Origin: a virus
DNA: 64,000 nt
Strand: one strand, 5' to 3'
Virus record (IMG/VR): IMGVR_UViG_3300002835_000017
Below are positions 1,895 to 63,430 of the stretch, piece by piece. Below the pieces are notes generated by a model. It searched no databases and was not told the origin of the DNA. It saw only the letters and a list, made by a program, of their open reading frames with translations. The translations under genes were made by a program, and so were the position numbers. Within the stretch, counting starts at the first letter, position 1. Each line of letters begins with the position of its first letter.

Positions 1895-1898
1895 ATTT

Positions 1899-3365
1899 TT
1901 ATTTTAAACAATGAACATTTATTAATTTATGTTTATCGGAAATGATTTTAGTGCTAATATGTTTATACTTCATATTATTTATACCATCTTTTTTATAATC
2001 AATCTTACCCTGTTGCATTTCTAATACATATCTTCTTTCATTTCTAGCCGTTGTTTCTCCTTTAGCCCATTTATCAACACCTCCAACTTTAATTAACCCC
2101 TCGGTTTCATGTGGTAGACAGAAAAATTTACCATCTCTTCTATGCGGTAATATTACATGAGGTATTTGTATTTCTCTTTCCTCAATACTAACATTATACA
2201 TTACACCATCATTTACTTCAGCCTGGTCTATTACAAATTTACCATCAGTTATTTCATCAAAATTATAATGTAATATTAAACCATCCGTTGAATATTCTTT
2301 ATGTAATTTTGAAACATCTTCACTTGATAATGCTCTATTCCATAATTTAATATCGGCAATTTCACCTTTAAAAAAGGCGTGTGGTTCAAATGGTTCTACG
2401 GTAGATGTGTGTCCTATGTAAAATGGCTCTGTACCATATCTTTTTAAATTATAGTTGTATTCAACTGGAGATTGTGTGCCAGTTCCGTTTCTAGCATCAC
2501 TTTCATTTCCATTCAAATAAAAATGCATTTTCTTTTCTAAATCATCAACTACCATTGTTACCCAAGTCCACTCACCTTCATAACGCTTGAACCATTGATA
2601 TATGTGTTCTCTGTGTGAGTTCCACATCATACCAGTATATGCTCTACTGTTATTAAAGGATAATCCCCAATCATAACCTGGTTTTCTGAATATAGGATAT
2701 TCAACAAATTTTCTTTCAGTATCACCAATTAACCAAATAGGAACTTTTTCTATTTGTTGTTCTGCTTTTACTAATACTGAAATCGTATGTGAATTAGATA
2801 TTGCCATTCTAGTTTGTTCTGTGGATGGTATTTTAATATAAGATTGCTTACCATCAAATAGTGCCACATTTTTTACTTTAGCAAAATCAATAGTTTGTTT
2901 ATCCACATATCCTTCCATAACACATCTCCAAAAAAGGTCATCATCTTCCATACCCCAATCCCAATAGTCATTTGAATAACCATTAGTTGCTAAAACTTGT
3001 TCTTTTGTAAAAACAACCGCACCACCAAAGTATTCCTGATATTTTAATTGATAATCAGATTGTGAAATACGAACTGCAATGTGTTGTGGATTTTCTTCTG
3101 GATATGAATAATCACAACTATCATCTTCAGGCACCATATCAATATCATGCCAAACAATATAATCACATCCATCATCAATTGCGTGCTTTGCAGCAATATT
3201 TTTCATCAATCCTCTGTTGAATAAATATTCATCACATTGATGTGCAATATAAATGGTATGGTCAATTCCTTTCTTTGTTAAGAAATTAGTAACCCAAGGA
3301 ACAAATTTATTCATGTGTTCCTCTCTGTTTCTATATGGTACGCAAACACCTAACTTATGTCCCAT
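1899..3365 (-). CDS. GT7 beta-1,4-galactosyltransferase-like glycosyltransferase with inserted LamG domain
   Basis: VPYRNR, FNRG, WHDIDM (DxD), YFGG, NGYSNDYWDWGMEDDDL; LamG FYLNG..FYIG..FKGEIADIKLWNRALS; GT7 C-terminal part GKFFCLPH..DGINNMKY. Confidence 0.88.
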   Translation of the reverse strand: MGHKLGVCVPYRNREEHMNKFVPWVTNFLTKKGIDHTIYIAHQCDEYLFNRGLMKNIAAKHAIDDGCDYIVWHDIDMVPEDDSCDYSYPEENPQHIAVRISQSDYQLKYQEYFGGAVVFTKEQVLATNGYSNDYWDWGMEDDDLFWRCVMEGYVDKQTIDFAKVKNVALFDGKQSYIKIPSTEQTRMAISNSHTISVLVKAEQQIEKVPIWLIGDTERKFVEYPIFRKPGYDWGLSFNNSRAYTGMMWNSHREHIYQWFKRYEGEWTWVTMVVDDLEKKMHFYLNGNESDARNGTGTQSPVEYNYNLKRYGTEPFYIGHTSTVEPFEPHAFFKGEIADIKLWNRALSSEDVSKLHKEYSTDGLILHYNFDEITDGKFVIDQAEVNDGVMYNVSIEEREIQIPHVILPHRRDGKFFCLPHETEGLIKVGGVDKWAKGETTARNERRYVLEMQQGKIDYKKDGINNMKYKHISTKIISDKHKLINVHCLK

Positions 3366-3366
3366 T

Positions 3367-4797
3367 CTACAATAATACCGATAGATGATGATAGTTATTC
3401 ATTGTTACATCATTTAATACTTGATATAAACAACTATTTAAACCATCTTTATCTGTGTTATATAATTTAGTTTTAACTTGATTTAAAAATCTTAATTGGT
3501 TTATACGAGTTTCTCTGTGAACCCAGTTTTTCTCATTCCAACTATTTGTTTTATGAGATAATAATTTAAATAAAGATTTTCTTCTATATGGAACTGCCAT
3601 TTCTCTACCCAATGATTCATGTGATTTTATGAAATGGCAATTGTGTATTTCTCCGTTATTATTATTAAATGATAAATCTAATAAAGTATCTTCTTTATAG
3701 AATTTAAAATCATAATATAATTGTAAATGTTGTGCGGATTTATAACCTCTAAAATTTTCTAATAAAGAATTTTCTAAAACATTGTCAGATAATATTTCAA
3801 TTTCTTTATCTTTTAATTTACAATCATATATTGCAAATTCGGAAATCATTCCATAAAAAAAGTTTTGATTAGAATCTCTTTCTGGTGAACCAACTCCTAA
3901 ATAAAAATATTCTTCATTTGAATAATCTTTAGGTGCATGTTTTACTTTTTCAGTATTAACTAACGTACCATCTTTATAAAAAGAAATTTGGTTTTTTTCA
4001 TAATCAAAAGTTAAACAGATTTGAGTAAAATGATTAGTTAATATTTCTGAATTAATAGAAGTGCAGTTATCAGTATTATCCCAAAAATCTATTTTATATC
4101 TTCTAAATGAATTATAACTTATATTTGTATCATAACCAGGTATAGAAAATACAGTATACTCATCATAATCATTATTTGGGTTAGATGTTATTTCATCTGG
4201 CTTAAATGTTATTAATATTGTAGTATCCTTTTCAAAATCTAATAATTCTTTTTTTGGTATTTTTATATAAGAATCGTTTCCACTAAATGATAATCCGTAT
4301 AATTTTTTGGTTTCATTTTTACCAATTATTTTAGAATCTAATGGAATTTTTTTCTGATTTACTCTAAATAAAAGGTCGTCATCTTCAAATCCCCATCCCC
4401 AATATAAATTGGAATACCCGTTTATTCGTTCAAATGTATCGGAACTAAACATAGTTACACCACCAAAATAGTCATCAAATGATAAGTTTTTAGATTTATC
4501 ATATTCTAATTCAAAATTAGTTGCAAGATGCATAGGTAATTCAGAATAAGAATAATCAACCTCAATTGGTAACATATCCACATCATGAAATACAACATAA
4601 CCACATCCTAATTCTTTTGCTTTAATATATCCAATATTTAATAACTTTCCTCTATTAAACGGTTTATCATCAGTTTGTTCAACTACAATAATTTCGTGTT
4701 TAATTTTTTTGGATTTTAAATATGAAGATGTTATTTCACCGAATCGGGTGAGATGTGATTCTCTATCTCTATATGGTACAATTATTCCTAATTTCAT
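3367..4797 (-). CDS. GT7-like glycosyltransferase with inserted LamG domain (paralogue 2)
   Basis: VPYRDR, PFNRGKLLNIG, FHDVDM, YFGGV, NGYSNLYWGWGFEDDDL; LamG FYKDG..FYGMISEFAIYD; C-terminal LLSH..DGLNSCLY. Confidence 0.88.
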   Translation of the reverse strand: MKLGIIVPYRDRESHLTRFGEITSSYLKSKKIKHEIIVVEQTDDKPFNRGKLLNIGYIKAKELGCGYVVFHDVDMLPIEVDYSYSELPMHLATNFELEYDKSKNLSFDDYFGGVTMFSSDTFERINGYSNLYWGWGFEDDDLLFRVNQKKIPLDSKIIGKNETKKLYGLSFSGNDSYIKIPKKELLDFEKDTTILITFKPDEITSNPNNDYDEYTVFSIPGYDTNISYNSFRRYKIDFWDNTDNCTSINSEILTNHFTQICLTFDYEKNQISFYKDGTLVNTEKVKHAPKDYSNEEYFYLGVGSPERDSNQNFFYGMISEFAIYDCKLKDKEIEILSDNVLENSLLENFRGYKSAQHLQLYYDFKFYKEDTLLDLSFNNNNGEIHNCHFIKSHESLGREMAVPYRRKSLFKLLSHKTNSWNEKNWVHRETRINQLRFLNQVKTKLYNTDKDGLNSCLYQVLNDVTMNNYHHLSVLL

Positions 4798-4802
4798 TTA
4801 GA

Positions 4803-5144
4803 TTATACTTTTTCGATATCTTTTTTAGGTCTTGCTCTACGAGGTGGTGGTAATTCTGCCCCTTCTTCGGTTTGGGCAGGTTCTGTTGGAACATTTCCAG
4901 CAAAAGGTTTTTCTGAATTTGATGATGCACCATTTTCTTTTGCAATATTATAGAATTCATACAGATAATACGCAACTCTATCACTCCACTCTGATTTGTT
5001 AATTTCTTCAAACCAAATAGTAAGTGCATCTAATGAGTTTGCAATTTTTTCTAATGCTTTTACTTTTCTAGTTTCTAACACAACTGATTCTAAATTTTCG
5101 TTTGTAGAAGGTGTTGTATCAGACTGTAACTTAATTTTTGCCAT
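4803..5144 (-). CDS. Hypothetical protein embedded in GT7 array
   Basis: 113 aa ORF tightly packed between GT7 paralogues; helical core and disordered Pro/Arg-rich tail. Confidence 0.6.
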   Translation of the reverse strand: MAKIKLQSDTTPSTNENLESVVLETRKVKALEKIANSLDALTIWFEEINKSEWSDRVAYYLYEFYNIAKENGASSNSEKPFAGNVPTEPAQTEEGAELPPPRRARPKKDIEKV

Positions 5145-5151
5145 TTTATTT

Positions 5152-6609
5152 TTATATTTTAATTTGATGCTTATAAACTCCTGTTTTAATTTCTTCGGTT
5201 GATATTAAATCGTATGATAATGTATTCAAACCAAATTTATCAGTATCTAATATATCAGTTGCAATTTCATAAAAGAAAATATTTTCATTTTCTTCAAATA
5301 TTTCATTTTTTTCTGTCCAATTATAGTTCTCTAATTTAGTAAATTTTTTTGAATTTTCCAAGATTTGAAACCGTCCATTTGATTGTTCTGGCATATCAAA
5401 TTCATAAGATAAATTCAATTCTTCGGAATATGTTTCCTGATGTATTCCAGTTGATACTATTCTTGGATTTGAAAATGTTTTAGAATCATCTACATAAAAA
5501 TCTCCAAATTTTTTATCAAATGGTACATTTATAACCGCTTCAAAATTTGTAGTTATTGTATTGTTTGTTGTTTTGTATCCGTCTGTATATAATTTTATTA
5601 TTTCAGAATCTGCTAACGCGTAATCAAATAATAATAAGTTGGATATTTTGCCACTAAATGAATTTTTAAATGCTAAACTACCAATCCATAAATCTTTTCC
5701 TTTAAAATCCATTAAATGTTTTGGTAATTTATCTAATGTTTGCACAATTTTACCATCAACATATAAACTGGCTTTTTTCTTATCCATATCAACCTTTAAT
5801 GATAGGTTTATCCATTGATTGGCATGAGATTTATGTGGATACCACATTTGATGTAAATTATTATCATCACTCCACAATTGAACTACAATTGCTTCATTTT
5901 TCATAATAAAAATTCCCATATCATATCCTTGTTTTCCAATAATACACCCATTATTTGATTGGTTGTTATTGATAAAAACATTCATTGATATTGTAAATGA
6001 ATCTTCAAAAATATAATCGGTTGTTTTATTTGCTCTTACAAATACACAATTATTTTCATTTGATTCAAACGGATATATTGTTTTTTTAATGTATTTATTT
6101 ACCTCTTTTACATCTGTTAAAACATGCGGTTTATATATATTTTTAGTAAAAAATCTTTTTGCAGATAATAATTTGTGTTTTTTTAATCTATACAAAAAAT
6201 CTATCCAATGAAAAGAACCTCCCCAATAATCATTACTAAATCCGTTTGCTTCGAAGAAATTTTCTTTTGTAATTTTAAAAGCACCACCTACCCAATGTGG
6301 ATATGGTTTTAAATTTGGACAAAGGTGAGTTGGATAGTATTCAAAATCGTAATTGCACGATTCCTGTTTAGGTAAAATATCTATATCATGGAATACATAA
6401 TAATCTGAACGATTTTGTGTTATGGATGCACCAATATTGCATAACTTTCCATAATTGAAATAAACATCTGCATCAATTTGTTCTATGAAATGAATTTCGT
6501 AATCCGTTTTATCTTTTAAAAAGTATTCCATGTGACCCACAAAGGTATATAGGTCTTGTAAACGATTGGAGTACGGTACTATAATTGATAACTTTTTATT
6601 GTTCATCAT
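5152..6609 (-). CDS. GT7-LamG paralogue 3 with degenerate catalytic motif (possible pseudoenzyme)
   Basis: VPY, FNYGKLCNIG and FHDIDI retained, but NGFSNDYWGGSFHWIDF replaces WGWGxEDDD; LamG LYVDG..LWIG..FSGKISNL; FGLNTLSY tail. Confidence 0.8.
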   Translation of the reverse strand: MMNNKKLSIIVPYSNRLQDLYTFVGHMEYFLKDKTDYEIHFIEQIDADVYFNYGKLCNIGASITQNRSDYYVFHDIDILPKQESCNYDFEYYPTHLCPNLKPYPHWVGGAFKITKENFFEANGFSNDYWGGSFHWIDFLYRLKKHKLLSAKRFFTKNIYKPHVLTDVKEVNKYIKKTIYPFESNENNCVFVRANKTTDYIFEDSFTISMNVFINNNQSNNGCIIGKQGYDMGIFIMKNEAIVVQLWSDDNNLHQMWYPHKSHANQWINLSLKVDMDKKKASLYVDGKIVQTLDKLPKHLMDFKGKDLWIGSLAFKNSFSGKISNLLLFDYALADSEIIKLYTDGYKTTNNTITTNFEAVINVPFDKKFGDFYVDDSKTFSNPRIVSTGIHQETYSEELNLSYEFDMPEQSNGRFQILENSKKFTKLENYNWTEKNEIFEENENIFFYEIATDILDTDKFGLNTLSYDLISTEEIKTGVYKHQIKI

Positions 6610-8292: not shown

Positions 8293-9180
8293 TTATTCAG
8301 TTATTTTAGTATAATATTTTTCAACTTCATCTTTAATTTTTGGCCATAGAAAATTTGTAAAGAAATCGATTGATTGTTCTTTTGATGGATGATTTTTACC
8401 ACCCAACATTGGTTCGTTTTTGTTGACAAAGTATTCTAGCATACCACCACCAAATCCATTTACCCTAACATCATCTGTAAATATAAATTTACTAAAATCA
8501 ATTTTTTCTAATAGTTCTGATATTATATTTGCTTCGAACCATGAATCGTCAAATGGTTCTAATTTATCAAACAAACTTTCTGTTTTTAGTATAGAATAAT
8601 TTCCTGCGTCTGAATCTGTTTTTTTTTGAAGAATCTGTAACTTGTTTACTGCAACATCCATTTGAAATAAATTACCTATACAAAACATTTTATATGGTAT
8701 ATTTTTTTCTTTAAAATACTGTTGAGTATGATATATACTTTCTAATGTTTGCAATATAGCACCATGTATTGAATAATATTTTTCAAAGAATTCTTTTCCA
8801 TATCCTGATATATCAGTTCCGTTTAACATATAGTTTATTTTACCAATTCTTTCAGGATGCATATTCATTCTTGGAAAGTTTTTTGCTCTATCCTCATCTA
8901 CAAATACAGGATAATCCCATCTATCGATTGTAGACCATTGAACTATTGCATAATCCACTTTCCAATGTGGTTTTAGTGCGTTATTATACTGTAATGAATT
9001 TAAAAACTTAAATACTTTTCTCCTCATTATGTCATTTCCAGAACCACCACAACCTGCATTATATACATCAAATGGTTCCGCTGATTTTTTATTATCAAAT
9101 AAAGAATATCCTTCCGTTTCAAACCCAATAGGCCAGTTTTCATCTCCAGCAGAAAACGAGCATCCGTTTATTAATATCAT
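8293..9180 (-). CDS. SGNH/GDSL hydrolase-like protein (candidate O-acyl esterase/transferase)
   Basis: ILINGCSFS (block I), NAGCGGSGND (block II), IVQWS, NHPS (block V). Confidence 0.75.
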   Translation of the reverse strand: MILINGCSFSAGDENWPIGFETEGYSLFDNKKSAEPFDVYNAGCGGSGNDIMRRKVFKFLNSLQYNNALKPHWKVDYAIVQWSTIDRWDYPVFVDEDRAKNFPRMNMHPERIGKINYMLNGTDISGYGKEFFEKYYSIHGAILQTLESIYHTQQYFKEKNIPYKMFCIGNLFQMDVAVNKLQILQKKTDSDAGNYSILKTESLFDKLEPFDDSWFEANIISELLEKIDFSKFIFTDDVRVNGFGGGMLEYFVNKNEPMLGGKNHPSKEQSIDFFTNFLWPKIKDEVEKYYTKITE

Positions 9181-10499
9181 AATAATTTATTTATATTATT
9201 CATTATATTGCAATAATGTGTTATCAATTTTTGTTTATTTTCTTTTAATATAGGTGTTTTTTGAATAAATGTATTTTTAGCATCGTTTATATTTTTATTT
9301 TTTAAAAAATCTACTATCATATCAATTTGTTCTAATTCATTTTTTGTTTGAATTCCTTGTAAACCAAAATCATCTAAAAACAAATCTATACCAATTCTTT
9401 TATATTCACTATATACTTTATTGGAACCAAATATCAATGGAAGTTTTTCCGATAATATTGGTTTTATAGATTTTTCTGTAAAAAATCCATATTTTAAATT
9501 AAAAATACAATGTGTTTCACCAACTACTTCAAAATATGATAAATCGTATTCTTTTTCTCTAAAATAATAAAGTAAATGGTCAAACTCAAATGGAGCATTC
9601 AAAGGTGTAATATTTATTTCATTTCTTATAGATTGTAATTTATTAAAATTTTCTTTTGTAAAATATTTTATATGATTATCGGTATGCGTGTTAGTATGGT
9701 CTGTATATATGTATCCTTCTCTAACTGCTTGTAAATATTCTATTAAAAATTTTTCATTTATACAATTTAAACCTGTTTTTAATATATCCGATTCTTTTGC
9801 TTTTAATAAAAACTGAACTCTATGAAATCTTGGTTTTAATGCCTGACTACTATACACATATAGTTTTTCAGTATTATGTGATATATTTAGATTTTTAAAT
9901 ATATTATAAAAATTATCATTATATGCTAATTTACCAGTAGTATGATTTGGAAATAAAAAATTTGTAAATTGTCCTTCGGCCATCAAATGAAACATACAAT
10001 AGAATGAATCGTAGTGAAAGTTTTTATCTCCATCAAACAATTCATAATCTGTCATTTTAATATGATTAAATTTAAAATCATATCTAAAATATTGTTCATC
10101 TTTTTCGTACTCAACTGCTTCTAAAAATGCAAAATTAAATAAAACTTTTGCATTACGTTCAACATACAGCTGTTCCAATTTATTAAATTCAATTGGATTT
10201 TTTTTCATTAATGGTAAATAAAATTCACTCCATATTTTTCTATCAATAACAATTATTAAATTATCAATTGGGTTTGAATACATTAAATCAAAAGTTGTTA
10301 TACCATCAAATGATTTTAATTTATTTAATACATTATATGGGTTTTGTATATAGTGATGTATTTTAATTTTTTCACCAGCATTATCTATAACAATTTCATG
10401 ATGTTTTTCTATTTTTATTGGGGTTACGGAAATCAAATTTGCTTCTGGAAACAAATTCTGTAACTCATTATATGTTGCTAATATATTTAATGACCTCAT
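9177..10499 (-). CDS. Putative glycosyltransferase (GT10/GT47-like C-terminal domain)
   Basis: RFHR, SYFEVVGET, FFTEKSIKPI motif; glycan-cluster context. Confidence 0.5.
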   Translation of the reverse strand: MRSLNILATYNELQNLFPEANLISVTPIKIEKHHEIVIDNAGEKIKIHHYIQNPYNVLNKLKSFDGITTFDLMYSNPIDNLIIVIDRKIWSEFYLPLMKKNPIEFNKLEQLYVERNAKVLFNFAFLEAVEYEKDEQYFRYDFKFNHIKMTDYELFDGDKNFHYDSFYCMFHLMAEGQFTNFLFPNHTTGKLAYNDNFYNIFKNLNISHNTEKLYVYSSQALKPRFHRVQFLLKAKESDILKTGLNCINEKFLIEYLQAVREGYIYTDHTNTHTDNHIKYFTKENFNKLQSIRNEINITPLNAPFEFDHLLYYFREKEYDLSYFEVVGETHCIFNLKYGFFTEKSIKPILSEKLPLIFGSNKVYSEYKRIGIDLFLDDFGLQGIQTKNELEQIDMIVDFLKNKNINDAKNTFIQKTPILKENKQKLITHYCNIMNNINKLL

Positions 10500-48610: not shown

Positions 48611-49264
48611 TTATTTAGATTTAATGTAATTTTGTCTTTCAATAATAGTACTCATGTGGTCTGCCCAATGCATTATGTACTGAATATTTGATTTAAGATA
48701 TTTGGATAAATCAAATGTTTTGTAATATTTTACATTATCTTCATCATACATTCCATCTGTAAGTTTAATACCAAAATATTCATTTTCATTATACTGAATA
48801 CCATACCTGTTAAGTAAGAAGAAAGTTCTGTCAGTAATTGCCATATAAGAGTTCTTACTATTTCTAGTGTATACTTCACCTTTATTTTTTACATGCCATT
48901 CTGATTCATTAGGTTCATAATGCAATTCTTCTTTAGTTCCTAACTTTCCTAAATCATGATGTAGTGCTACAAATATTAATTCTTCATCTGTAAAATCAGG
49001 TACACCACCCTGTGATACAAATACATTTTTCATAGCAATTGCATTCTTACAAACATTAAAAATGTGGTCGATATAACCACCAGGATATGCATTATGAAAA
49101 TTTAAATTACCTGAAGCTGGTGATATCATAAGGTTACCACCTAATTCTGATTCAGAGTACATGTGAAGAAGTTTTTCTAATCTTTCTCCTGTGAAGTACT
49201 TTTCTAGGATTTTAAGAAACTTTTCGTAATTTGTTTTTAATTCTTGTTCTGTTTTTTGTTTCAT
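48611..49264 (-). CDS. HD-domain phosphohydrolase
   Basis: PAS..FHNAYPGGYIDH..LHHDLGKLG..HWAD. Confidence 0.88.
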   Translation of the reverse strand: MKQKTEQELKTNYEKFLKILEKYFTGERLEKLLHMYSESELGGNLMISPASGNLNFHNAYPGGYIDHIFNVCKNAIAMKNVFVSQGGVPDFTDEELIFVALHHDLGKLGTKEELHYEPNESEWHVKNKGEVYTRNSKNSYMAITDRTFFLLNRYGIQYNENEYFGIKLTDGMYDEDNVKYYKTFDLSKYLKSNIQYIMHWADHMSTIIERQNYIKSK

Positions 49265-49337: not shown

Positions 49338-49655
49338 TCAGATAAAAAGTTTTTTCTTTGTTAAAATTTCATATAGAATTTCAACCTCTTCTTCAGTAGT
49401 TAATTCAGGCAAATCATCATCAAACAATCGAAGAGTGTAGACGGTATTTCCTTTTTCATCAAAAAATTCATCAGATTCAGAACTGAATAATGCGGGAGCA
49501 TATTCTATATTTTCTAAAGCATCCTCATCATCTATATCTATCAATGGTATAACATAATAGTGATAAGAATCTACTCCATCTTCTACTTCTATTTTATGAC
49601 ACTTCCATTTATTGAAGCTATTTTCAGTTATTAGAGTCTGTGGTAATATAATCAT
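49338..49655 (-). CDS. Acidic hypothetical protein
   Basis: 105 aa; own promoter at 49674-49704 (TTGT-N19-TATATTTA). Confidence 0.6.
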   Translation of the reverse strand: MIILPQTLITENSFNKWKCHKIEVEDGVDSYHYYVIPLIDIDDEDALENIEYAPALFSSESDEFFDEKGNTVYTLRLFDDDLPELTTEEEVEILYEILTKKKLFI

Positions 49656-49715
49656 AATTAAAACATTTAGAAGTAAATATAATAAAAAAATATGAATTTT
49701 ACAAATTACAGTTTC

Positions 49716-50366
49716 TTATAATATCTTTTTACCATTTTCTTTAAACAATCCTGCGTACACATAATTTGCAAATTGTTTATGTCCCAAAAAACTTAAATGA
49801 TAATCTTCCATTTTACCTTTGGTAGCATCTTTTATATTTTGTGCTCTCGAATCTTCCCAAATAGTTTGGGTATAAAATTCAAAATATTTATAACATTTTA
49901 TTATAGATTTTAAAAAATCATATCTTTGTTCATGACGTTGACGATATACATCATGCCCACTAAAATAATATGAAAAATTAACAATGGTTTCATATTCTTC
50001 TTTACTTTTAACTGTGGTTTTATATCCTGTTTCGGATTTGACTACGTTTCCGCATATAGTATAAAATTCACCTGGAGTTTCAGATGGTATATCAAATCGA
50101 TTTGAAAAAGTTTTATTAACAATTACAATATCGTTTTCCGAAATTAAATGATAATTACTTATTATCTTATCAAATATATAATCATTAGATGCTCCACATT
50201 TACCCAAATTATTTAATTTATATCCCAATTTATTGGCCAATATAACAGGCCAAATTAAATCATCATCATTTTTTTTATATTGTTTATAATAGTCATCCCC
50301 CTCATAGTTTAGGACACATCCGTGTCCAAACGTCATTGAATCGCCAAAAGTCCAAAGTGTTGCCAT
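49716..50366 (-). CDS. SGNH/GDSL hydrolase-like protein
   Basis: FGDSMTFG, NLGKCGASN, DYHLSFLGH. Confidence 0.85.
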   Translation of the reverse strand: MATLWTFGDSMTFGHGCVLNYEGDDYYKQYKKNDDDLIWPVILANKLGYKLNNLGKCGASNDYIFDKIISNYHLISENDIVIVNKTFSNRFDIPSETPGEFYTICGNVVKSETGYKTTVKSKEEYETIVNFSYYFSGHDVYRQRHEQRYDFLKSIIKCYKYFEFYTQTIWEDSRAQNIKDATKGKMEDYHLSFLGHKQFANYVYAGLFKENGKKIL

Positions 50367-50368
50367 TT

Positions 50369-51418
50369 TTAAATTAAAGTTTTTTCAGTTTCGTATAAAT
50401 GATGAAAATTATGTAATACATTTGGAATATTTTTAACTTTATCCAATTCTAACAAAAACAAATTATGTTCTGGATGTTCTGGATTTGCTACATTTTTAAT
50501 TTTAAATTCAGCTTCACTGAATGTACCCCAATCCGAAATTACATTAGTTCTGATATCCCATTTTACTTTACTTTCTCTGTTATCCATATATGATTTAATC
50601 ATTTTATAAAAATCATACATTTCTTTATAATTAGTATCTTGCACCACAAATGAAAAAATATATTCTTTAATTGTTGGTATTTTTGTTATAAAACTTAAAT
50701 TTTCATGTAACACATTCCAATTACCACCAATTCTAGTTTTAGTTTCGTATGTTTCTTTTGTAGCTGCATCTATTGAAATTTCACAAGTATTAACATAACA
50801 ATGTATTCCACTCATCTTCTCCCACATTTCGGGAGTCCATAGTGACCCATTTGTATGTAAGTGAATTGATTTTAATTTTTTAAATTTGGTTGAATCCAAT
50901 GTAATAAGAAACTGTCTAAATGATTTTGAGAAAAATGGGTCAGCCGAACCACTCAATACTAATCTTTCAACAAACGGTGATATTTCGTTATTGATTTCAG
51001 TTAGTTTTTTTTCTACAGTTAATCGTGCATTACCTTTATAATTTATCAATTCAACTCTACAGGATGGACATTGAAAATTACAACTTCTATCAAATGTAAA
51101 ATTAATTACTTTAGGTTTTTTGGTTTTATGTAAAGTATCAACATTTTCACGTGTATTAGGTATAAATTTAAGAGGTACTCTATTACTTTTTAAACTTGCT
51201 AAATACGGACATAAAGTTTCATTACAATATTTGTAACTACCATCGGTTACACTATCTCTTATTTTTTCAGAAATTTCAGAATTAAAGCTAGATACTATAC
51301 CACTACCATCATTTATATCAACTGGTAGCCAAGATGGACAGCACAAAAATTGTTTATTATCCTCCACTTCTGTAAAGTAGAATGGAGCGGTACATATATA
51401 TTTTGATTTATCAATCAT
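50369..51418 (-). CDS. Radical SAM protein with N-terminal auxiliary Cys cluster
   Basis: CNFQCPSC; CTAPF..CCPSW..CNETLCP; HTNG; ISIDAA. Confidence 0.9.
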   Translation of the reverse strand: MIDKSKYICTAPFYFTEVEDNKQFLCCPSWLPVDINDGSGIVSSFNSEISEKIRDSVTDGSYKYCNETLCPYLASLKSNRVPLKFIPNTRENVDTLHKTKKPKVINFTFDRSCNFQCPSCRVELINYKGNARLTVEKKLTEINNEISPFVERLVLSGSADPFFSKSFRQFLITLDSTKFKKLKSIHLHTNGSLWTPEMWEKMSGIHCYVNTCEISIDAATKETYETKTRIGGNWNVLHENLSFITKIPTIKEYIFSFVVQDTNYKEMYDFYKMIKSYMDNRESKVKWDIRTNVISDWGTFSEAEFKIKNVANPEHPEHNLFLLELDKVKNIPNVLHNFHHLYETEKTLI

Positions 51419-51435
51419 CCTTTAATACTATTATA

Positions 51436-51918
51436 TTAAAATATTTTCTTTTTTATATTTTTTTTATCTATAAACACAATCAATGACCATCGTTCACCAT
51501 AAGTTACTTCTTTAACTTCATGCAATCCACTTCCATAAAAACTATATATAGAACCACATATCTTTGGTAAAATTTTCATCGGATTGTAACATATAAGTTC
51601 TCCACCTCCGTAATCTTCATTCAAGCAAACTCCTATATTATATTCACTTCTTTTATCTATATGCGGTTGAAATTTATTTCCTGTTTGAACATTTTGTAAG
51701 TGAATTAAATTAATTGGTTCTACTAATTTTATACTTGTATGTTGTTCAATGTATTCCATTAATCTTACAAAAATCCATTCCGTTAAATCGGTTCGTTCTA
51801 CATGCCAAGCAAAGTATTTTGTTTCATCACTTTCCCACCATTCATCAGATGTATGTTTTTTAAATACACTTTGAAGTGAAATTATTTTTTTACATTCTTC
51901 TTTTGTAAAATTTATCAT
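51436..51918 (-). CDS. 2OG-Fe(II) oxygenase (prolyl 4-hydroxylase-like)
   Basis: PHID, LNEDYGGGEL, LHEV..GERWSL. Confidence 0.85.
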   Translation of the reverse strand: MINFTKEECKKIISLQSVFKKHTSDEWWESDETKYFAWHVERTDLTEWIFVRLMEYIEQHTSIKLVEPINLIHLQNVQTGNKFQPHIDKRSEYNIGVCLNEDYGGGELICYNPMKILPKICGSIYSFYGSGLHEVKEVTYGERWSLIVFIDKKNIKKKIF

Positions 51919-51924
51919 ATAATT

Positions 51925-52497
51925 TTATAATAAAGTTTTATTACTAGATATAGTACTACCATATTTAGCATTATTAGATATAGTAGTTCTCAATATAGAT
52001 ATATGTGTAAGTTTTAAATGAGATGGAAACAATAGTTGAAATTTTATTATATCAAAAATTTCTGAAAATTTTATTTTATTAGATGTAACTATTTTGTTAT
52101 GTTCTAACGTAGTAGGATATAAATTCACAACTCTTAATTTCATATTGTGATGTTTATTTATTAGATTAATGGAAGATTTTTGTAAATTTAATTTACTTTC
52201 TCTATACTCATCAATACTACCATTATTAAGAATAGCCGATGTTAGTATATTAAAAATAGTTTTTTCTTTATATTTCCATTCTTCAAAAAGTTCTTCAAAT
52301 AATTTTTGTTGATAAATTGGATGATATGTATTATTTATAAAAACATCACATTCATTAGCATCTTGTATTATTTTTTCGTAATTTTCTAATGAATAATTAT
52401 TGGTTCTTGAAAATCCAATAACTTCGTTTTCTTTTTTGAGTAGGGTATAAAGTTCTTTACCTAAATTTTGAGTATGACCTGTTATTGCTACTTTCAT
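51925..52497 (-). CDS. Short-chain dehydrogenase/reductase-like protein
   Basis: VAITGHTQNLG, DVFINN, YRESK (YxxxK). Confidence 0.75.
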   Translation of the reverse strand: MKVAITGHTQNLGKELYTLLKKENEVIGFSRTNNYSLENYEKIIQDANECDVFINNTYHPIYQQKLFEELFEEWKYKEKTIFNILTSAILNNGSIDEYRESKLNLQKSSINLINKHHNMKLRVVNLYPTTLEHNKIVTSNKIKFSEIFDIIKFQLLFPSHLKLTHISILRTTISNNAKYGSTISSNKTLL

Positions 52498-52545
52498 TGA
52501 ATTAATTTTTTTGTTTCCTTTAGAATATATACGGCATTGTTTTAC

Positions 52546-53490
52546 TTAAATTAAACTATTATTTTTTAATAAAACACTTTTCTTTTCAGTTTTCTGAATC
52601 CACTCATAGTATTTTTTAGATGCAGTATTTTCTTTTAGTTTTAAATTTAAGTTATATGGGAGTGATTTTTTATAGTTTGATTTATTAAAATAATTGATAT
52701 TAGAATTGGTTACTCCTGCATTATGCATTATGTTATATCTATTATAAAAATCCTCACTTGATGTTGCAAAAACAAACATTAAATCGGGATGACATTGTGT
52801 TTTATATCCACCCTTCCAAATGTTCCATAGTACAGACCACATATCTGCTGCCCATATTTGTAATTCATGATAAGATGGATTTTCTTGTTTTTTCTTGTTA
52901 TTTAATTGGGTTATTTTTTTATATAAATTTTCACAATCACGCTCCACATTTTCCCAAAAAGTATCATCTATATTTTTTAAAATATACTGTGCCCCGATTG
53001 AATTATTATTATTATCGATAACAAGTTGTGGATTTATATCTACTATTTTAACCATTTTATCAAAAACATCTTTGCCTTTAGAAATTATATAGTCATACGA
53101 AATATACCAATGTGTATTAGAACCATAAAATATATCATCGTTTTCAAACTGATTCCAATTTATTGGAACTCTAAATATAATATCACAATCGTGATAAAAT
53201 ATGGTTTCATTTTTTAAATTAGGATGTAATTTAAAATGTTGTTTAAGAATATTAGGTCTTATTGAAGAAATATAATGTTTTGTTATACGAGTATCCTCAT
53301 AGAAAAAAAATCTAGCATTATACCCATTTGATAATTTTTTCCATACTTCTGGTATTTTATTATTTTTTTTTGTGCAAACTATATCAACACATTGAAGGTC
53401 CACCCCCATTTCCATAAAATTATTAAGCATGACTTCTATTTGCCATGCAAAGTATAATTCGGATGGTTGTGCACAAATAAATCTAATCAT
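52546..53490 (-). CDS. GT-A glycosyltransferase resembling GT95/GT96 (Hyp-arabinosyl / Ser-galactosyl transferases)
   Basis: YFAWQ, SIRP, YHDCD (DxD), WAADMW, HNAG. Confidence 0.6.
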   Translation of the reverse strand: MIRFICAQPSELYFAWQIEVMLNNFMEMGVDLQCVDIVCTKKNNKIPEVWKKLSNGYNARFFFYEDTRITKHYISSIRPNILKQHFKLHPNLKNETIFYHDCDIIFRVPINWNQFENDDIFYGSNTHWYISYDYIISKGKDVFDKMVKIVDINPQLVIDNNNNSIGAQYILKNIDDTFWENVERDCENLYKKITQLNNKKKQENPSYHELQIWAADMWSVLWNIWKGGYKTQCHPDLMFVFATSSEDFYNRYNIMHNAGVTNSNINYFNKSNYKKSLPYNLNLKLKENTASKKYYEWIQKTEKKSVLLKNNSLI

Positions 53491-53504
53491 AATTTTTTTA
53501 TAAA

Positions 53505-54101
53505 TTATAATAATTTACTTTTAGCAGAAGAAAAATCGGATTCATATAAAAATATAGTTAAACTAAATCTAATACCCTCTTCTAATAGTTTTACTTCATG
53601 TATATCCGAACTTAAAAATAAAGAATATGACCCTTGTTCTTTGGATTGAGGAACATCCTTAACATATAAATATCCACCAACATAATCTTTAGGGTCTGAT
53701 AATTGGATTACTAAAGTTTTATATGTACAACCAAATTCATCTATGCTTCTAAAATCACGATGAGGCGCAAAAAAATCACCTTCAATATATTTTGTTATTT
53801 TAACCTGATTATTTAAAATAGATTTTATACCGATTTTTGATAATCTACTTAAAATAAAATTTATTAATTCTTTGTTAAACAAATCTAAAAATTTTAATTT
53901 TGCATTTTTTGGTTTGATGGTAATTATTCTACCGTTTTCCGTTTGTAATTGTACAGTAGTTGCACCATTTATTACGGTAGTAGTATCTTTACGGTAATTG
54001 CCATTGGTTGTTCGATATACTACACCATCTATTGAATTAAAATCATCCCAAAAAGATTTTATATATTCACAATCTTCTTTTGAAAATAAAACATTATCCA
54101 T
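53505..54101 (-). CDS. 2OG-Fe(II) oxygenase (prolyl 4-hydroxylase-like)
   Basis: PHRD, QLSDPKDYVGG, IHEV..GIRFSL. Confidence 0.87.
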   Translation of the reverse strand: MDNVLFSKEDCEYIKSFWDDFNSIDGVVYRTTNGNYRKDTTTVINGATTVQLQTENGRIITIKPKNAKLKFLDLFNKELINFILSRLSKIGIKSILNNQVKITKYIEGDFFAPHRDFRSIDEFGCTYKTLVIQLSDPKDYVGGYLYVKDVPQSKEQGSYSLFLSSDIHEVKLLEEGIRFSLTIFLYESDFSSAKSKLL

Positions 54102-54116
54102 AAATAACTTAATGTA

Positions 54117-54254
54117 TTATAGATGTTTTTGTTTAAATAAATTTACAAAGGTAGTAATTATATTCATTGCTTTTAATTTATCATCAGATGATGCTAATGA
54201 TATTTGTGTATTTGCTACTTCTTGAACCGGTATTTTTTTATATATTGTTGCCAT
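54117..54254 (-). CDS. 45-aa small protein downstream of the Hint polyprotein (absent from ORF track)
   Basis: MATIYKKIPVQEVANTQISLASSDDKLKAMNIITTFVNLFKQKHL fills the intergenic gap, A-rich leader. Confidence 0.6.
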   Translation of the reverse strand: MATIYKKIPVQEVANTQISLASSDDKLKAMNIITTFVNLFKQKHL

Positions 54255-54276
54255 TTTATTTTTGTTTATTAATAAG

Positions 54277-56484
54277 TTATTGAAAAACTGCTTGTCTTTT
54301 AAGAGTATTATTTAGTAATTCATTATCCCCTAAACCAGAAACCACAAAATCCTCCACTATAAAGTTATGCTCACTTTCAAATAAAAGATTACCATCTATT
54401 TCTAAATTATAAAAATTATCCACATATTGAATACCTAATTCAACACCTGGTGCTTCAAAAATTGGTTTCCATTCTCCATTATCATAGAATGGATGTAATC
54501 TATCGGAAATCATTCCTTTATATTTTACAACCTCAACAACATCATTTGTAGGGTGTATTAATTTATCAGTTACAACACCTCTTACATATTTACCGTCTTT
54601 GTAACTTAAAATACAATCTCCTATTTCTATATCAATAATATTTTTAAAACTACCATCTTCCATTTCAACTTTGGTTTCAGCAGTGAAACACGATGTTGTT
54701 GTTGTAACTTTATTATGAACTAAAATGTTTTCTGCAAAATAAGTATGATTATCTTTAACATCAATTAAGTGATATACTTTGAATTCACCTTTTAAAGATT
54801 CAATTGATTTAACTTTTACAAGAATACCATCTTTATTAAATAACAAATTACCTACTTTAATATCTTGTGCGTGAGACCATCCGTGTTCCTCAACATAAAA
54901 TTTATGTAAAGGTGTACTTTTAACTTCATCACCATTTTCAGTTACAATATAAATAAGTTCATTTTGAGTAGAAACACGAATACTTGTAGCCGTACCTGCT
55001 CCATATTTTCCTTGTTCATTATTGTAAGTAAGTAAAACATCAGTAGTAGTTAAATCTTCAATGTTTTTATATGTACCATCATTTAACAATATACGAGTTC
55101 CTGCTGGGAAACAGTTGTGGGTTACAATCTTAATATTGATATCATTATCATATAATGCAAATGTATCAGTTTCTTCCAAATCTAAAATGTAAGTTGAAAG
55201 TCCTTCTTCGTTTAAAACTTCAAAATCATTATCAGTAATATCAATAAGATTACCATCTAATTTGAATACCTTATGTTCTCCTGGTATAATTCCTGCAACT
55301 TCTTCGTATCTAATTAAATCAGAAACACTATCATAAATAAGAATATGTTGACCACCATTTGCTCTAAACGAACCACTACCATAGTATAAATGAGATACTA
55401 GATTATTTGGAAGTGATTGTTCTATTTTATTTATTAAAACCGAAGATGTAACATAAGAACCACTTGGTAAAGTTTGTCCAGGATAACTCCAACTTGTAAA
55501 TACCATAACACTATCGGTATCAGGTGTTCCTTCTATACAAAAAGATTTATAAGAACCGCCAATTTCAACATCAGATATTTGTACAGGATTTCCATCCGAA
55601 TCACTAATTAATTCTTCTTCAAAAATACCACCCCATGAATTATCAGTAATAAATTTAGGAAAGTTTGTTGTAAATTCATAATAATGTTTAGATGAAAGGT
55701 TAGATTCATCAATAAAAGATAAAGATTCTGGTTTTTCAAAAACTGCAGTAGGTTCAATTGTTACCAAATTTATTACATCTAATTCAGAACCATATATTAT
55801 GTTAAATGTACGAATTGATTTATGTCTAATGTCATCGGTATCTTCATAATTCATTAAAATATTAGATTCAATATATGATTGAGATATAAATGAATCAAAC
55901 GAATTTTCTAAACTTACACCATCTTGTGTTTGTATTTTATAAAAAGATAATGGATATCTAGCATAAGTTTCATCTTTTATAACAATATCCGGTATATTTT
56001 CGGAATTAACAACTCTTTGTAATCCATCATAAAAAAATTCCGATGATGAAATATACATAGAAGGTATTGAACCAGTTTCGGATGCATCTATAAATAATTT
56101 ATGTAATTCAAATGATGATTTACAATATTCACTATCAAATACAGCAGATTCATCATACGCTAATCTTAATATAAATTTATTATCAGAATCTTCAACATTT
56201 GTTGGATAAACAGTTGATATATCTTCTTCGTATATAACAAATGAGGTAATGTTAGGTTGTGATTGAATACTTTGAGATAAAAAAGTTAAAAACCCACTTT
56301 GGAATGGTTTGTGAATTACCTCCAATGAATCGATATTATTATCAGATAATATTGAAAAGAATTCAGTAAAATCAAGTTGAGATACTGAACTACTCCAGAA
56401 TCCAGTATCGGTATTTAATTCCAATAATCTCAAATTACCAGTTGAGTCTTTTACAAAATCTGCGGAAAATAGTGTTCCTTTCAT
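54277..56484 (-). CDS. Circularly permuted ATP-grasp-like domain fused to three tandem Hint domains
   Basis: N-terminal DFVKD..LLELNTD; Hint1 G286..VTHN457; Hint2 C458FPAGT..STPLH..LVHN591; linker KVTTTTS; Hint3 C599FTAET..FYNL..VVSG; TATTTATA at 56512-56519. Confidence 0.8.
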   Translation of the reverse strand: MKGTLFSADFVKDSTGNLRLLELNTDTGFWSSSVSQLDFTEFFSILSDNNIDSLEVIHKPFQSGFLTFLSQSIQSQPNITSFVIYEEDISTVYPTNVEDSDNKFILRLAYDESAVFDSEYCKSSFELHKLFIDASETGSIPSMYISSSEFFYDGLQRVVNSENIPDIVIKDETYARYPLSFYKIQTQDGVSLENSFDSFISQSYIESNILMNYEDTDDIRHKSIRTFNIIYGSELDVINLVTIEPTAVFEKPESLSFIDESNLSSKHYYEFTTNFPKFITDNSWGGIFEEELISDSDGNPVQISDVEIGGSYKSFCIEGTPDTDSVMVFTSWSYPGQTLPSGSYVTSSVLINKIEQSLPNNLVSHLYYGSGSFRANGGQHILIYDSVSDLIRYEEVAGIIPGEHKVFKLDGNLIDITDNDFEVLNEEGLSTYILDLEETDTFALYDNDINIKIVTHNCFPAGTRILLNDGTYKNIEDLTTTDVLLTYNNEQGKYGAGTATSIRVSTQNELIYIVTENGDEVKSTPLHKFYVEEHGWSHAQDIKVGNLLFNKDGILVKVKSIESLKGEFKVYHLIDVKDNHTYFAENILVHNKVTTTTSCFTAETKVEMEDGSFKNIIDIEIGDCILSYKDGKYVRGVVTDKLIHPTNDVVEVVKYKGMISDRLHPFYDNGEWKPIFEAPGVELGIQYVDNFYNLEIDGNLLFESEHNFIVEDFVVSGLGDNELLNNTLKRQAVFQ

Positions 56485-56547
56485 AGTGTTGTGTTTATTC
56501 GTTTATTCCTGTATAAATATGAGTATTACAAATAAATGATTATTATT

Positions 56548-57147
56548 CTATATTAAGTTTTGTTTTGGTTTAATATCAATTGTATTTCGTAATCTATTTC
56601 TATTATCTAATAGAGAATACGATTTTACTTTTTTAATTTCTAGATAGTTAGTTAATTTATCAATATCTACATTACTTTGATATAGATTTTCACAATATAT
56701 ATTTTCGTATGATATTAATAATTCAATTTGTGGTATATTAGATATTAACTCTTTGTTTTTTTGTAATCTAGATTCCTCCTTTTTGATTTCTTCTTCATTT
56801 TCTGTTATCCATTCATTAGTTATTTCATAACAATCTCTCCAAATGTTAGAAGCCAATGCCCAGCAGTGTGATATCGCACACTCTCGTGTATCATTTCGTA
56901 TCAAACCAATAATTTTATCCCAATTACTCCAATCGAACGTATCTAATTCATTTTCTATTTCACTAATCAAATATTTTACTACCGTATTGTTTTTGTTTTT
57001 AGCCAATAATCGTATTTTATAAATACTCAATATATCCCCATTATCCATTGTTGGTTCATGAATAGTTTCATACCTTTTTTCTGAACCAATCCAATTAAGT
57101 AAAGAGTATCCACCACTTCTACCCATCGCTATTATTAATATTCTCAT
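56548..57147 (-). CDS. Sulfotransferase-like P-loop protein
   Basis: IIAMGRSGGYSL (5'-PSB loop), HEP, LIR..AIS, ISYE. Confidence 0.7.
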   Translation of the reverse strand: MRILIIAMGRSGGYSLLNWIGSEKRYETIHEPTMDNGDILSIYKIRLLAKNKNNTVVKYLISEIENELDTFDWSNWDKIIGLIRNDTRECAISHCWALASNIWRDCYEITNEWITENEEEIKKEESRLQKNKELISNIPQIELLISYENIYCENLYQSNVDIDKLTNYLEIKKVKSYSLLDNRNRLRNTIDIKPKQNLI

Positions 57148-60214: not shown

Positions 60215-60227
60215 CACATATTTTTTA

Positions 60228-60263
60228 TCGGCGGGGGTTGGGGGACCTCCGTCGAACTTTTTT
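60228..60263 (+). terminator. Intrinsic terminator of the + strand early cluster
   Basis: TCGGCGGGGGT-TGGGGG-ACCTCCGTCGA-ACTTTTTT. Confidence 0.75.
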
Positions 60264-60292
60264 AAGAAAAATTTTTATACCTCAATTGATAG

Positions 60293-60991
60293 TTATATTA
60301 ATCTCACCTTTTTTCTAATTTTTTTTATTTTCGGTAGTTCCAGTATTTTTCTATCACATATATAATCATAGTATTTAGTTTCTTCCTCTATAGCATTTAG
60401 TATCCTAGACCATATCTCGGGAAACACTATCTTTATGGAATTGATTATATCCGTACGAGAAGGACCGTATTTCGAAAAATTATAATCGGATGGAGTGTAT
60501 GCACCAGTAGCACCAACAATACCATTTTTAGCAAGAAAACGGGTTAAATCCCTTAATGGAACTATTTGTATATTTGGTCTCATTTGAAACAAATACCACA
60601 ATCCCTTATATAGTGTGGGTGACCAATGTCCCGTTCCAAATGTAGTATATTCCAATAACCATTCCCTTAATTCCAAATTAGTAGAAATAAACCCACCACC
60701 ATCTTTTATTAAATTTTTATGATGTCCGGATATATCGGTATGTAATGCGGCTTGTAATAAATCAATCGGCTCCCTTAATATTATATGTGTAATGGGTAGT
60801 TTCCAATAATGGAATATATGTTCCGAAGGAATCATTATTTTGTTATGATTTTCCGTATCGTTTATAAACTCATCCCAATCCAACGGAAATTGTGTATTTA
60901 ATTGTGTTTTAATATCTAATAACTTATCTATATGACGGCTACCACATTTTGCGGGAACTAACCAAGAGTTATTATATAGTGTTAAATCCAC
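60293..60991 (-). CDS. Sulfotransferase family 2-like protein
   Basis: PAKCGSR, ILREP, GHWSP. Confidence 0.55.
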   Translation of the reverse strand: MDLTLYNNSWLVPAKCGSRHIDKLLDIKTQLNTQFPLDWDEFINDTENHNKIMIPSEHIFHYWKLPITHIILREPIDLLQAALHTDISGHHKNLIKDGGGFISTNLELREWLLEYTTFGTGHWSPTLYKGLWYLFQMRPNIQIVPLRDLTRFLAKNGIVGATGAYTPSDYNFSKYGPSRTDIINSIKIVFPEIWSRILNAIEEETKYYDYICDRKILELPKIKKIRKKVRLI

Positions 60992-62376: not shown

Positions 62377-62392
62377 CGTATTATTTGATTAG

Positions 62393-62772: not shown

Positions 62773-62801
62773 AAAAAACCGGCAGACTCTCATCTACCGG
62801 T
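62773..62801 (-). terminator. Intrinsic terminator
   Basis: ACCGGTAGA-TGAGAG-TCTGCCGGT-TTTTT. Confidence 0.8.
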
Positions 62802-62821
62802 GTTTACGAATGCGAAGCGTG

Positions 62822-63151: not shown

Positions 63152-63193
63152 GAGTGGAGTGGGGATTCGAACCCCAGCTTACCTCTCTCCACT
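63152..63193 (-). ncRNA. tRNA-like mini-element (acceptor stem + T-arm; no D stem or anticodon arm)
   Basis: AGTGGAG-AGAGGTAAGC-TGGGG-TTCGAAT-CCCCA-CTCCACT-C. Confidence 0.6.
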
Positions 63194-63366
63194 TACTCTA
63201 CTACTGGTTGTGCTACAGGAGCTTCAGCAGCGGTAGTATCTACTGTAGTTACTGCGGTTGTATCTACTGCTACTGCAGTCGAGTCCGTAGTACCTTCTGT
63301 AGTACCCTTACCTCCACATGCTACCATAAGGGATGCGAGGGCTAACATTGCGATTACTTTTTTCAT
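63193..63366 (-). CDS. Small Bacteroidota-type lipoprotein (start revised to MKKV)
   Basis: MKKVIAMLALASLMVA-C lipobox; T/A/D-rich tail with DST, DTT, DTT. Confidence 0.8.
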   Translation of the reverse strand: MKKVIAMLALASLMVACGGKGTTEGTTDSTAVAVDTTAVTTVDTTAAEAPVAQPVVE

Positions 63367-63430
63367 CTTGTTATTAGTTTGTATAGTGAGTCCGTTAATA
63401 TAGGTGGTACTCATTACCTATTTGAGATTA

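Follow-up and report, generated by a model that had tools for sequence, protein, structure and literature searches.

A short C-terminal tail shared by unrelated phage tailoring enzymes accompanies a ligase/Hint gene and may act as a docking tag

Introduction

Why should phage enzymes of unrelated fold, encoded side by side, end in nearly the same four residues? The question is raised by the uncultured virus IMGVR_UViG_3300002835_000017 (IMG/VR), of which a stretch of 64,000 nucleotides, here called the window, was analysed. Around a gene with Hint domains at 54277..56484, a series of putative tailoring enzymes, among them a hydrolase, a radical S-adenosylmethionine (SAM) enzyme and two 2-oxoglutarate (2OG) oxygenases, finish in a basic or polar residue, one further residue and two hydrophobic residues. 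A sequence-only reading of the window had remarked on this tail and proposed that it is a docking, localisation or degradation signal that gathers interchangeable modifying enzymes. We find that the tail is a selected, strictly terminal protein motif, gained by many unrelated families and closely associated with the Hint gene, whose product reads as a permuted ATP-grasp ligase joined to its Hint domains. Its most likely function is that of a docking tag, a reading in which we place about even confidence.

Results

The tail in the window

Translation of the genes placed all of the C-termini quoted in the sequence-only reading where it had located them, on the minus strand. The two additional tails that it listed away from the main group, KVRLI and INKLL, are also genuine members, since each of these families keeps its end. 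The main group lies in a hypervariable island between core genes. The tailed genes, together with one doubtful member, are as follows.

49338..49655, minus strand: flanking core gene of 105 amino acids ending KKKLFI, doubtful member (family f4)
49716..50366, minus strand: SGNH/GDSL hydrolase of 216 amino acids, tail GKKIL (last four codons at 49719..49730)
50369..51418, minus strand: radical SAM enzyme of 349 amino acids, tail EKTLI (Pfam PF04055)
51436..51918, minus strand: 2OG-Fe(II) oxygenase of the prolyl 4-hydroxylase (P4H) type, 160 amino acids, tail KKKIF (Pfam PF13640; family f0)
51925..52497, minus strand: Rossmann or short-chain dehydrogenase/reductase (SDR)-like protein of 190 amino acids, tail NKTLL (weak RmlD_sub_bind match, E 0.015)
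52546..53490, minus strand: probable glycosyltransferase of 314 amino acids with an HPAT-like lead, tail NNSLI (Atlas feature search)
53505..54101, minus strand: 2OG-Fe(II) oxygenase of 198 amino acids, tail KSKLL (Pfam PF13640; family f0)
56548..57147, minus strand: sulfotransferase-like protein of 199 amino acids, tail KQNLI (Atlas features and structure)
60293..60991, minus strand: protein of family f35, outside the island, tail KVRLI (homologue ends)
9177..10499, minus strand: protein of 440 amino acids, 40 kb from the island, tail INKLL (homologue ends)

The Hint gene that lies among them ends AVFQ. Among the proteins of the window, the dipeptide [LIF][LIF] occupies 4.0% of internal positions compared with 11 of about 61 C-termini, and it closes eight of the nine consecutive genes in 49338..57147. 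Shuffling the tails among genes gave p = 1.3e-5 for this clustering, and the binomial probability is 5.7e-11 at the 4% background or 8e-4 when every terminal codon is forced to be made of A and T only. A chance origin of the tails in the window is thus excluded. The core structural and replication genes of the window, most of which the sequence-only reading had listed as untailed, lack the tail, and the same holds for the replication and structural genes of a complete relative (G001).

The earlier claim that the tail sits on different folds holds for the radical SAM enzyme, both 2OG oxygenases, the SGNH protein and the sulfotransferase-like protein, while the glycosyltransferase and SDR assignments are weak leads only. 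In the SGNH protein the GDS, G, N and DxxH residues are invariant in alignment, and Foldseek returned GDSL matches. The 199-residue protein reaches template modelling (TM) scores of 0.70-0.71 to Sulfotransfer_3 clusters in the Atlas, and 93% of its family (f19) is tailed. The oxygenase family is tailed in about 86-91% of its members. All members of the SDR-like family carry the tail, and a family f75 member matches adh_short weakly. For the 314-residue protein, the Atlas feature search led to HPAT/PF23452 clusters, which we treat as a lead only. Pfam searches at E up to 1 gave no match for the SGNH, glycosyltransferase-like, sulfotransferase-like, 440-residue and f35 proteins, nor for a 45-residue open reading frame (ORF) beside the Hint gene. 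The flanking core gene at 49338..49655 is a doubtful member, as about 19% only of its family has such an end and the family also occurs in islands without the ligase gene.

The HPAT-like candidate (52546..53490) adjoins the P4H-type oxygenases at 51436..51918 and 53505..54101. HPAT denotes the hydroxyproline O-arabinosyltransferase family, and this neighbourhood is a hint that hydroxyproline may be formed in a peptide or protein that is then glycosylated. Another block, comprising four proteins of 471-488 amino acids, lies at 479..6609 on the minus strand. On clustering, the first of these (479..1894) joined the radical SAM family f5. None of the four has a K-x-L-I tail, and their ends are ...TIKI, ...CLK, ...SVLL and ...QIKI.

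Distribution and consensus across related loci

The sequence-only reading had proposed tabulating the last residues over the phage and its relatives against an A/T-rich codon background. We assembled 106 related IMG/VR loci from two scans, queried respectively with the radical SAM protein and with a flanking core gene (48611..49264), called ORFs in them and clustered the resulting 1,970 proteins into families. Family statistics were taken over the 144 families that contain two or more distinct sequences, and whole-genome comparisons were made on the relatives G001, G003 and G005. The tail is bimodal by family: an end of two hydrophobic residues is found in at least 60% of members in 30 of the 144 families, and in no more than 10% of members in 95. 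The tail-rich families comprise several divergent 2OG oxygenases, SGNH/GDSL, radical SAM, GT2-like, DUF6734, SDR-like and tryptophan-halogenase families, and many without assignment.

Weighted by family, the consensus of the tail is K-[S/T/K/N]-[L/I]-[I/L/F]-COOH. Position -4 is K in 47% and N in 12%, position -3 is K (36%), S (22%), T (15%) or N (12%), position -2 is L (61%) or I (28%), and position -1 is I (51%), L (23%) or F (14%). The information content from -1 to -4 is 1.7, 2.1 (2.06), 1.3 and 1.05 bits, against 0.33 bits or less in the other families, and there is a weak enrichment of Lys from -5 to -7. In G001, 14 of 216 genes have such ends. A protein of 473-480 amino acids ending NKTLI or KKSLI adjoins a giant tail-fibre gene and a sugar-enzyme cluster in two relatives (G001 129929..131371, locus L113; L013 11769..13190), and because of this placement tagged genes are taken to occur outside the main island as well.

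Selection at the protein level and at the exact terminus

In a genome of about 30% GC, a tail of K, N, I, L and F, all residues with A/T-rich codons, might be a by-product of composition, of overlap with the next gene or of some DNA motif where cassettes join. The coding sequences indicate otherwise. Ser at -3 is drawn from both codon boxes (AGY 46%, TCN 54%), 26% of the Leu codons in the tail are not TTA, Ile is encoded by ATA and ATT, and stop codons of all three kinds follow. The gap from a tailed gene to the next start codon ranges from a 4-nucleotide overlap to more than 20 nucleotides. The packing of tailed genes is somewhat tighter than that of others, but core genes of equally tight packing have no tail. 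Since synonymous codons and spacing vary and tightly packed core genes are tail-less, the constraint on the tail acts on amino acids and not on DNA. A DNA-level motif, translational coupling and A/T codon bias were ruled out as explanations by codon variation, by spacing, by a relative of the same GC content and by the A/T-only null.

The motif is confined to the end of the protein. In the tail-rich families, 111 of 307 proteins end in K[STKN][LI][LIF], compared with 0.2% per internal position, and the tail-less members of these families have it nowhere, with no inward shift. The tail sits on a flexible extension of 5-8 residues past the fold. The model of the SGNH protein has a predicted local distance difference test (pLDDT) score of 89; its final helix stops at residue 208, and the score for residues 211-216 is below 50. 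The earlier claim that the tail lies on an extension beyond the core fold is borne out by this model and by the comparison of radical SAM orthologues given below. Disorder of the tail in a confident model fits a motif that binds a partner.

Conservation and independent gain

The tail is kept over long distances. In a set of 5.8 billion proteins, 72 of 77 SGNH homologues, down to about 35% identity, keep the end while the residues preceding it diverge. Among 111 full-length homologues of the 440-residue protein, down to about 30% identity, 93 end in N/K-K-L-[L/I] or similar, and every homologue of the f35 protein, at 24-37% identity, closes with a hydrophobic pair preceded by diverged residues. 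The sequence-only reading had itself named two findings that would count against it, namely tails on core genes as frequent as codon bias predicts, and tails not conserved among orthologues. Instead, core genes are without the tail, as is the relative of the same GC content, and orthologues keep it.

The tail has also been gained independently by unrelated families, to judge from three comparisons of related proteins with and without it. Radical SAM orthologues encoded near the ATP-grasp/Hint gene have the tail in ten cases out of ten; tail-less radical SAM proteins stop at ...HNFHHLIN, where tailed orthologues continue ...HNFHHLYETEKTLI, adding 6-7 residues. Among halogenases, 9 of 13 representatives of the compact clade nearest the phage protein bear the tail, against 6 of 137 that end in two hydrophobic residues, the background rate, in the wider family of about 500 amino acids. 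Finally, no tails were found in the 2OG oxygenase cluster of the cultured cyanophage S-CAM8.

Association of the tail with the ligase/Hint gene

Two neighbouring genes are the constant parts of the module to which the tailed enzymes belong.

54277..56484, minus strand: probable permuted ATP-grasp ligase with Hint0, Hint1 and Hint2 domains, no tail (Pfam Hint, alignment and structure matches)
54117..54254, minus strand: ORF of 45 amino acids ending K-H-L, directly after the ligase/Hint gene (ORF listing and synteny)

The ligase/Hint gene is the only family present in all 18 of the 18 distinct tail-rich islands. With it, 97 of 131 island genes are tailed, against 4 of 25 without it (Fisher p = 6e-8, uncorrected for phylogeny). 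The same pattern is seen between genomes. G005, which is 92% complete and has the same GC content, lacks the ligase N-domain by profile search; it has no four-residue tail at all, and its [LI][LIF] ends (3.4%) are at the background rate. The ligase-bearing G001 and G003 have seven and five four-residue tails, respectively. In G005 a Hint-like segment lies at 102648..102956 (L123) within an ORF of 1,525 amino acids, and is probably an intein in another gene. The tail motif is identical across three ligase architectures, which we refer to as multi-Hint, Cys-peptide and S74 type, and no covariation of tail variant with architecture was seen over the three.

The ligase/Hint protein and its small neighbour

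The sequence of this anchor protein and an AlphaFold model (pLDDT 72) were compared with known families. The product of 54277..56484 comprises a predicted ligase region (residues 1 to ~276), Hint0 (~330-457), Hint1 (458-591) and Hint2 (599 to ~720). The Hint part is well supported, with a Pfam PT-HINT match at E 9e-18 and, for residues 455-596, VIA-align Z scores of 22.2 to BIL2 and 19.6 to the Hedgehog Hint domain. When the profile of the ligase was searched against sequences in the PDB, positions 284-446 (Hint0) matched the KlbA intein and a bacterial intein-like (BIL) domain; the Hint part alone matched, and the N-terminal region found no sequence match in Pfam or the PDB.

For residues 1-276, structural comparison with VIA-align gave YgiC (Z 8.8, 205 residues aligned at a root-mean-square deviation of 4.3), a glutathione-synthetase-like protein (Z 8.6) and GspS (Z 8.5), all Z values in the grey zone, with weaker matches to RimK, LysX/ArgX and TTLL (Z 5.8-6.5). 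The best non-Hint structure matches all belong to one superfamily, and among the Foldseek matches is human glutathione synthetase (E 1.5e-5), itself an ATP-grasp enzyme of permuted type. Based on these models, the product of the "Hint" gene of the window reads as a permuted ATP-grasp ligase to which Hint domains are fused. In an alignment of 82 sequences D9, E22, N24, D99, R107, D111, D117, Y120, P165, K170, R225 and N457 are invariant, while H456 and C458 are kept in 90% or more of the sequences. Going by the fold, E22-x-N24 would bind Mg/ATP, and K170, R107, R225 and the four Asp residues would have catalytic roles.

The three Hint domains differ at their ends. Hint1 and Hint2 begin with a nucleophile (C458 and C599, respectively). 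In the alignment, Hint0 (window 55114..55500) starts without a conserved Cys, Ser or Thr, and it ends H456-N457 followed by C458. Because the N-terminal nucleophile is missing and the H-N/C junction is kept, Hint0 is probably capable of C-terminal cleavage only. Relatives at several loci (L042, L093, L071, L064, L054, L067 and others) carry after this junction a peptide of 30-45 residues with about six Cys, and in some of them the Cys peptide is followed by a self-cleaving intramolecular-chaperone domain of the S74 type (KSD...KKIN); the window variant has two further Hint domains instead. In such relatives the Cys-rich peptide would be freed by self-cleavage at both ends, much like the core of a ribosomally synthesised and post-translationally modified peptide (RiPP).

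The ligase family has 956 homologues at E <= 0.001. No tblastn match to the gene was found in 50,697 deposited phage records, and megablast of the island gave no match. The small ORF is syntenic in nearly all relatives, at 27-50 amino acids, and most of its forms end K-H-[L/M/S/T], sometimes with one more residue; the shortest end [A/E]-N-S or T-H-S. Its product is a possible substrate or adaptor of the ligase.

Setting of the window and other features

Because of its PHROGs matches, which include long-tail-fibre, baseplate-wedge, SbcCD-like, PhoH and Nol-like carbamoyltransferase genes, the window is judged to be a piece of a large, uncultured myovirus-type phage of about 200 kb. Its GC content is 30% and almost all of its genes are on the minus strand. 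The close relatives are IMG/VR contigs of 176-276 kb, and by its baseplate protein the window comes nearest, among cultured phages, to Microcystis phage Mel-JY01 (43%) and Flavobacterium phage immuto (40%).

From 60001 to 64000 the GC content of the window rises to 0.38 and gene density falls. A T-loop-like string, GGTTCGAATCC, follows the ORF at 63193..63414, where ARAGORN calls no tRNA. The string TTATATTTA occurs on the minus strand at 11715, 24595, 27749, 39341, 46784 and 49674, in short intergenic gaps immediately upstream of gene starts. These are six of its ten minus-strand matches, and the total of 15 against 8.9 expected is only a mild excess; it is a promoter-like motif, perhaps of late promoters.

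Discussion

A proposed docking tag for interchangeable enzymes

The features of the tail, a disordered four-residue exact C-terminus on some 30 unrelated folds that is gained on entry to the module and lost together with the anchor gene, are those expected of a docking motif. We therefore favour the view that the tail plugs the interchangeable enzymes of one module into a common receptor. It would act as a short linear motif, and the pocket reading it would bind the free carboxylate as well. The receptor for the free C-terminus is probably either the ATP-grasp/Hint protein or its 45-residue partner, which are the best candidates. The ligase/Hint protein (54277..56484) and the small ORF would then be the constant parts of the module and the tailed enzymes the interchangeable ones, so that whichever enzymes a phage carries would be brought to the same substrate. 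The tagged set comprises oxygenases, radical SAM, SGNH, sulfotransferase-like and glycosyltransferase-like proteins, with a halogenase in relatives. Given the P4H-type oxygenases, the HPAT-like lead, the sulfotransferase-like protein, the radical SAM enzyme and the halogenase, this set suggests the modification of a peptide or protein. We infer both the docking action and the identity of the reading protein from these observations.

The proposal of the sequence-only reading thus stands as far as a shared, protein-level signal under selection is concerned, carried by interchangeable enzymes and tied to a scaffold-like ligase/Hint protein; among docking, localisation and degradation, docking is only the likeliest. 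A PDZ domain as the phage-encoded reader is not supported, as PDZ profiles (PF13180, PF17820) found none in G001-G004, while control profiles matched in 14 of 14 genomes; the reader may instead belong to the host. Set against a class I PDZ ligand, the tail has I, L or F at p0 in about 88%, and S or T at p-2 in about 37-46%, with K or N otherwise. Nothing in the analysis points to a virion assembly site or compartment, which had also been suggested. A sliding-clamp-binding tail was ruled out, as the replication and structural genes of G001 are untailed; two polymerase-sized, unannotated ORFs of that genome end ...KKFFTF and ...GDFI, and the profile PF09116 matched nowhere, the control genomes included, and so is uninformative.

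Several points weigh against docking to a module protein. The association of tail and ligase gene, being uncorrected for phylogeny, could reflect membership of one pathway. The motif is constant over the ligase architectures, and so there is no covariation that would separate a phage reader from a host one. Some tailed genes (9177..10499, 60293..60991) lie far from the island. The ligase of the window is without the Cys-rich peptide of its relatives, so that no common substrate is evident here.

Alternative explanations

A reader in the host is central to the first alternative, in which the tail is a degron or timer: a basic-then-aliphatic end would be read by a host AAA+ or tail-specific protease, and the accessory enzymes would be short-lived. 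MuA, for example, ends in RRKKAI, a signal for ClpX, and apolar C-termini are read by Tsp and FtsH. The tail is suitably exposed and disordered in the SGNH model, it places basic residues before two aliphatic ones at the exact terminus, and its sameness in all module types is what a conserved host reader would give. However, host reading alone leaves the loss of the tail in ligase-less phages unexplained, and other accessory genes of the same genomes are untagged, only module enzymes bearing it. No Clp protease or ClpP is encoded in the four or five related phage genomes searched for it. By analogy with such signals a degron may be considered, but we think it unlikely.

The ATP-grasp fold raises a second alternative, that the tail is a handle for the ligase itself, which would activate the tail carboxylate and join it to an amine or thiol, for example a Hint-exposed N-terminal Cys. 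The nearest folds (YgiC, GspS, glutathione synthetase, RimK, LysX/ArgX and TTLL) act on the C-terminal carboxylates of peptides or proteins, residues of catalytic type are invariant, the motif needs an exact terminus, and the H-N/C junction after Hint0 is invariant. Yet a stoichiometric ligation of enzymes serves no evident purpose, and the adjoining 45-residue ORF, with a conserved end of its own, is an equally good ligase substrate. We regard the handle as rather improbable. More speculative still is the notion that the tail is the handle of a phage protein-conjugation machine, in which the ATP-grasp domain would activate the Ile or Leu carboxylate and pass it to a Hint-exposed Cys or via a Hint thioester. 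Were this true, it would amount to a ubiquitin-, Pup- or sortase-like system built from entirely different parts, in which a peptide, a virion part or a host target receives a variable set of enzymes.

Equally improbable, to our mind, is a localisation signal read outside the module, either a weak anchor to the membrane, formed by a polybasic stretch with two hydrophobic residues, or a virion packaging signal. Lys is enriched from -4 to -7 before the hydrophobic pair, and the sugar- and lipid-type enzymes of the set (SGNH, sulfotransferase-like and glycosyltransferase-like) often act at membranes. Against this, conservation is limited to four positions, and the strict terminus and the Ser/Thr preference at -3 are more readily explained by a binding pocket than by a membrane surface; the tail is disordered and forms no amphipathic helix. 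That the tail has no function, as a product of A/T-rich codons, tighter packing or junction motifs, is as good as refuted by its position-specific residue order beyond composition, by the codon, spacing and all-A/T-codon controls above, by the untailed G005 and equally tight core genes, and by conservation to about 30% identity.

Comparison with known systems

Short C-terminal signals are familiar from peroxisomal targeting signal 1 (PTS1), -SKL-COOH read by Pex5, and from class I PDZ ligands, [S/T]-x-hydrophobic-COOH. The phage tail resembles both in its hydrophobic last residue, the basic or hydroxyl residue upstream and the flexible extension, and, as proposed here, in its dependence on a free carboxylate. 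It differs in restricting the penultimate residue, too, to Leu or Ile, and in that no organelle is involved. A second parallel is found in biosynthetic systems, where the RiPP leader peptide and its recognition element (RRE), or the docking domains of non-ribosomal peptide synthetases (NRPS) and polyketide synthases (PKS), serve as a shared element that lets unrelated tailoring enzymes act on one peptide. The phage enzyme set is typical of peptide tailoring, and relatives have a Cys-rich peptide fused to the ligase; compared with a RiPP leader, however, the polarity would be reversed, the short peptide being on the enzymes rather than on the substrate, and no RRE was encountered, though no search was aimed at one. 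Thirdly, RimK, LysX/ArgX with LysW, tubulin tyrosine ligase (TTL) and YgiC/GspS are ATP-grasp ligases that recognise a C-terminal tail. The fold of the anchor protein matches theirs, with Z scores of only 6-9, but its domain is permuted and fused to Hint, and the enzyme tails as its ligand are conjecture.

Another parallel is the targeting complex for cytosolic iron-sulfur assembly (CIA), for which a recognition tripeptide, [LIM]-[DES]-[WF]-COO-, is described on eukaryotic cytosolic Fe-S proteins (10.1101/2023.05.19.541488 / PMC10245660). Both cases have a very short, exact C-terminal motif on unrelated clients that are brought to one machinery. The tripeptide is eukaryotic and made of other residues, and its clients receive a cofactor, whereas the tagged phage proteins themselves modify. 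Large aquatic myophages also have islands of comparable content: the tandem dioxygenase/halogenase clusters of cyanophages, such as Syn9 gp49-gp5x (Iyer et al. 2010, PMC2938197), and the host recognition cluster of pelagimyophages (PMC7029224) are hypervariable and carry 2OG oxygenases, halogenases, sulfotransferases and carbamoyltransferases. Unlike the module described here, these clusters showed neither a shared C-terminal motif nor an ATP-grasp/Hint anchor in term searches of the two papers. Searches of the full-text literature found no published description of the tail.

Significance

The oxygenase, halogenase, radical SAM and transferase islands of large aquatic phages have had no known substrates ever since their first description (PMC2938197, PMC7029224). 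The tail provides a sequence rule by which members of such a module can be listed anywhere in a genome, and a peptide bait for finding their common partner and hence the substrate. In viruses of bacteria it would exemplify how a minimal tag can recruit enzymes in modular fashion, a principle open to reuse in engineering; and should the tag prove to be a substrate of the ligase, it would represent a new protein-conjugation chemistry.

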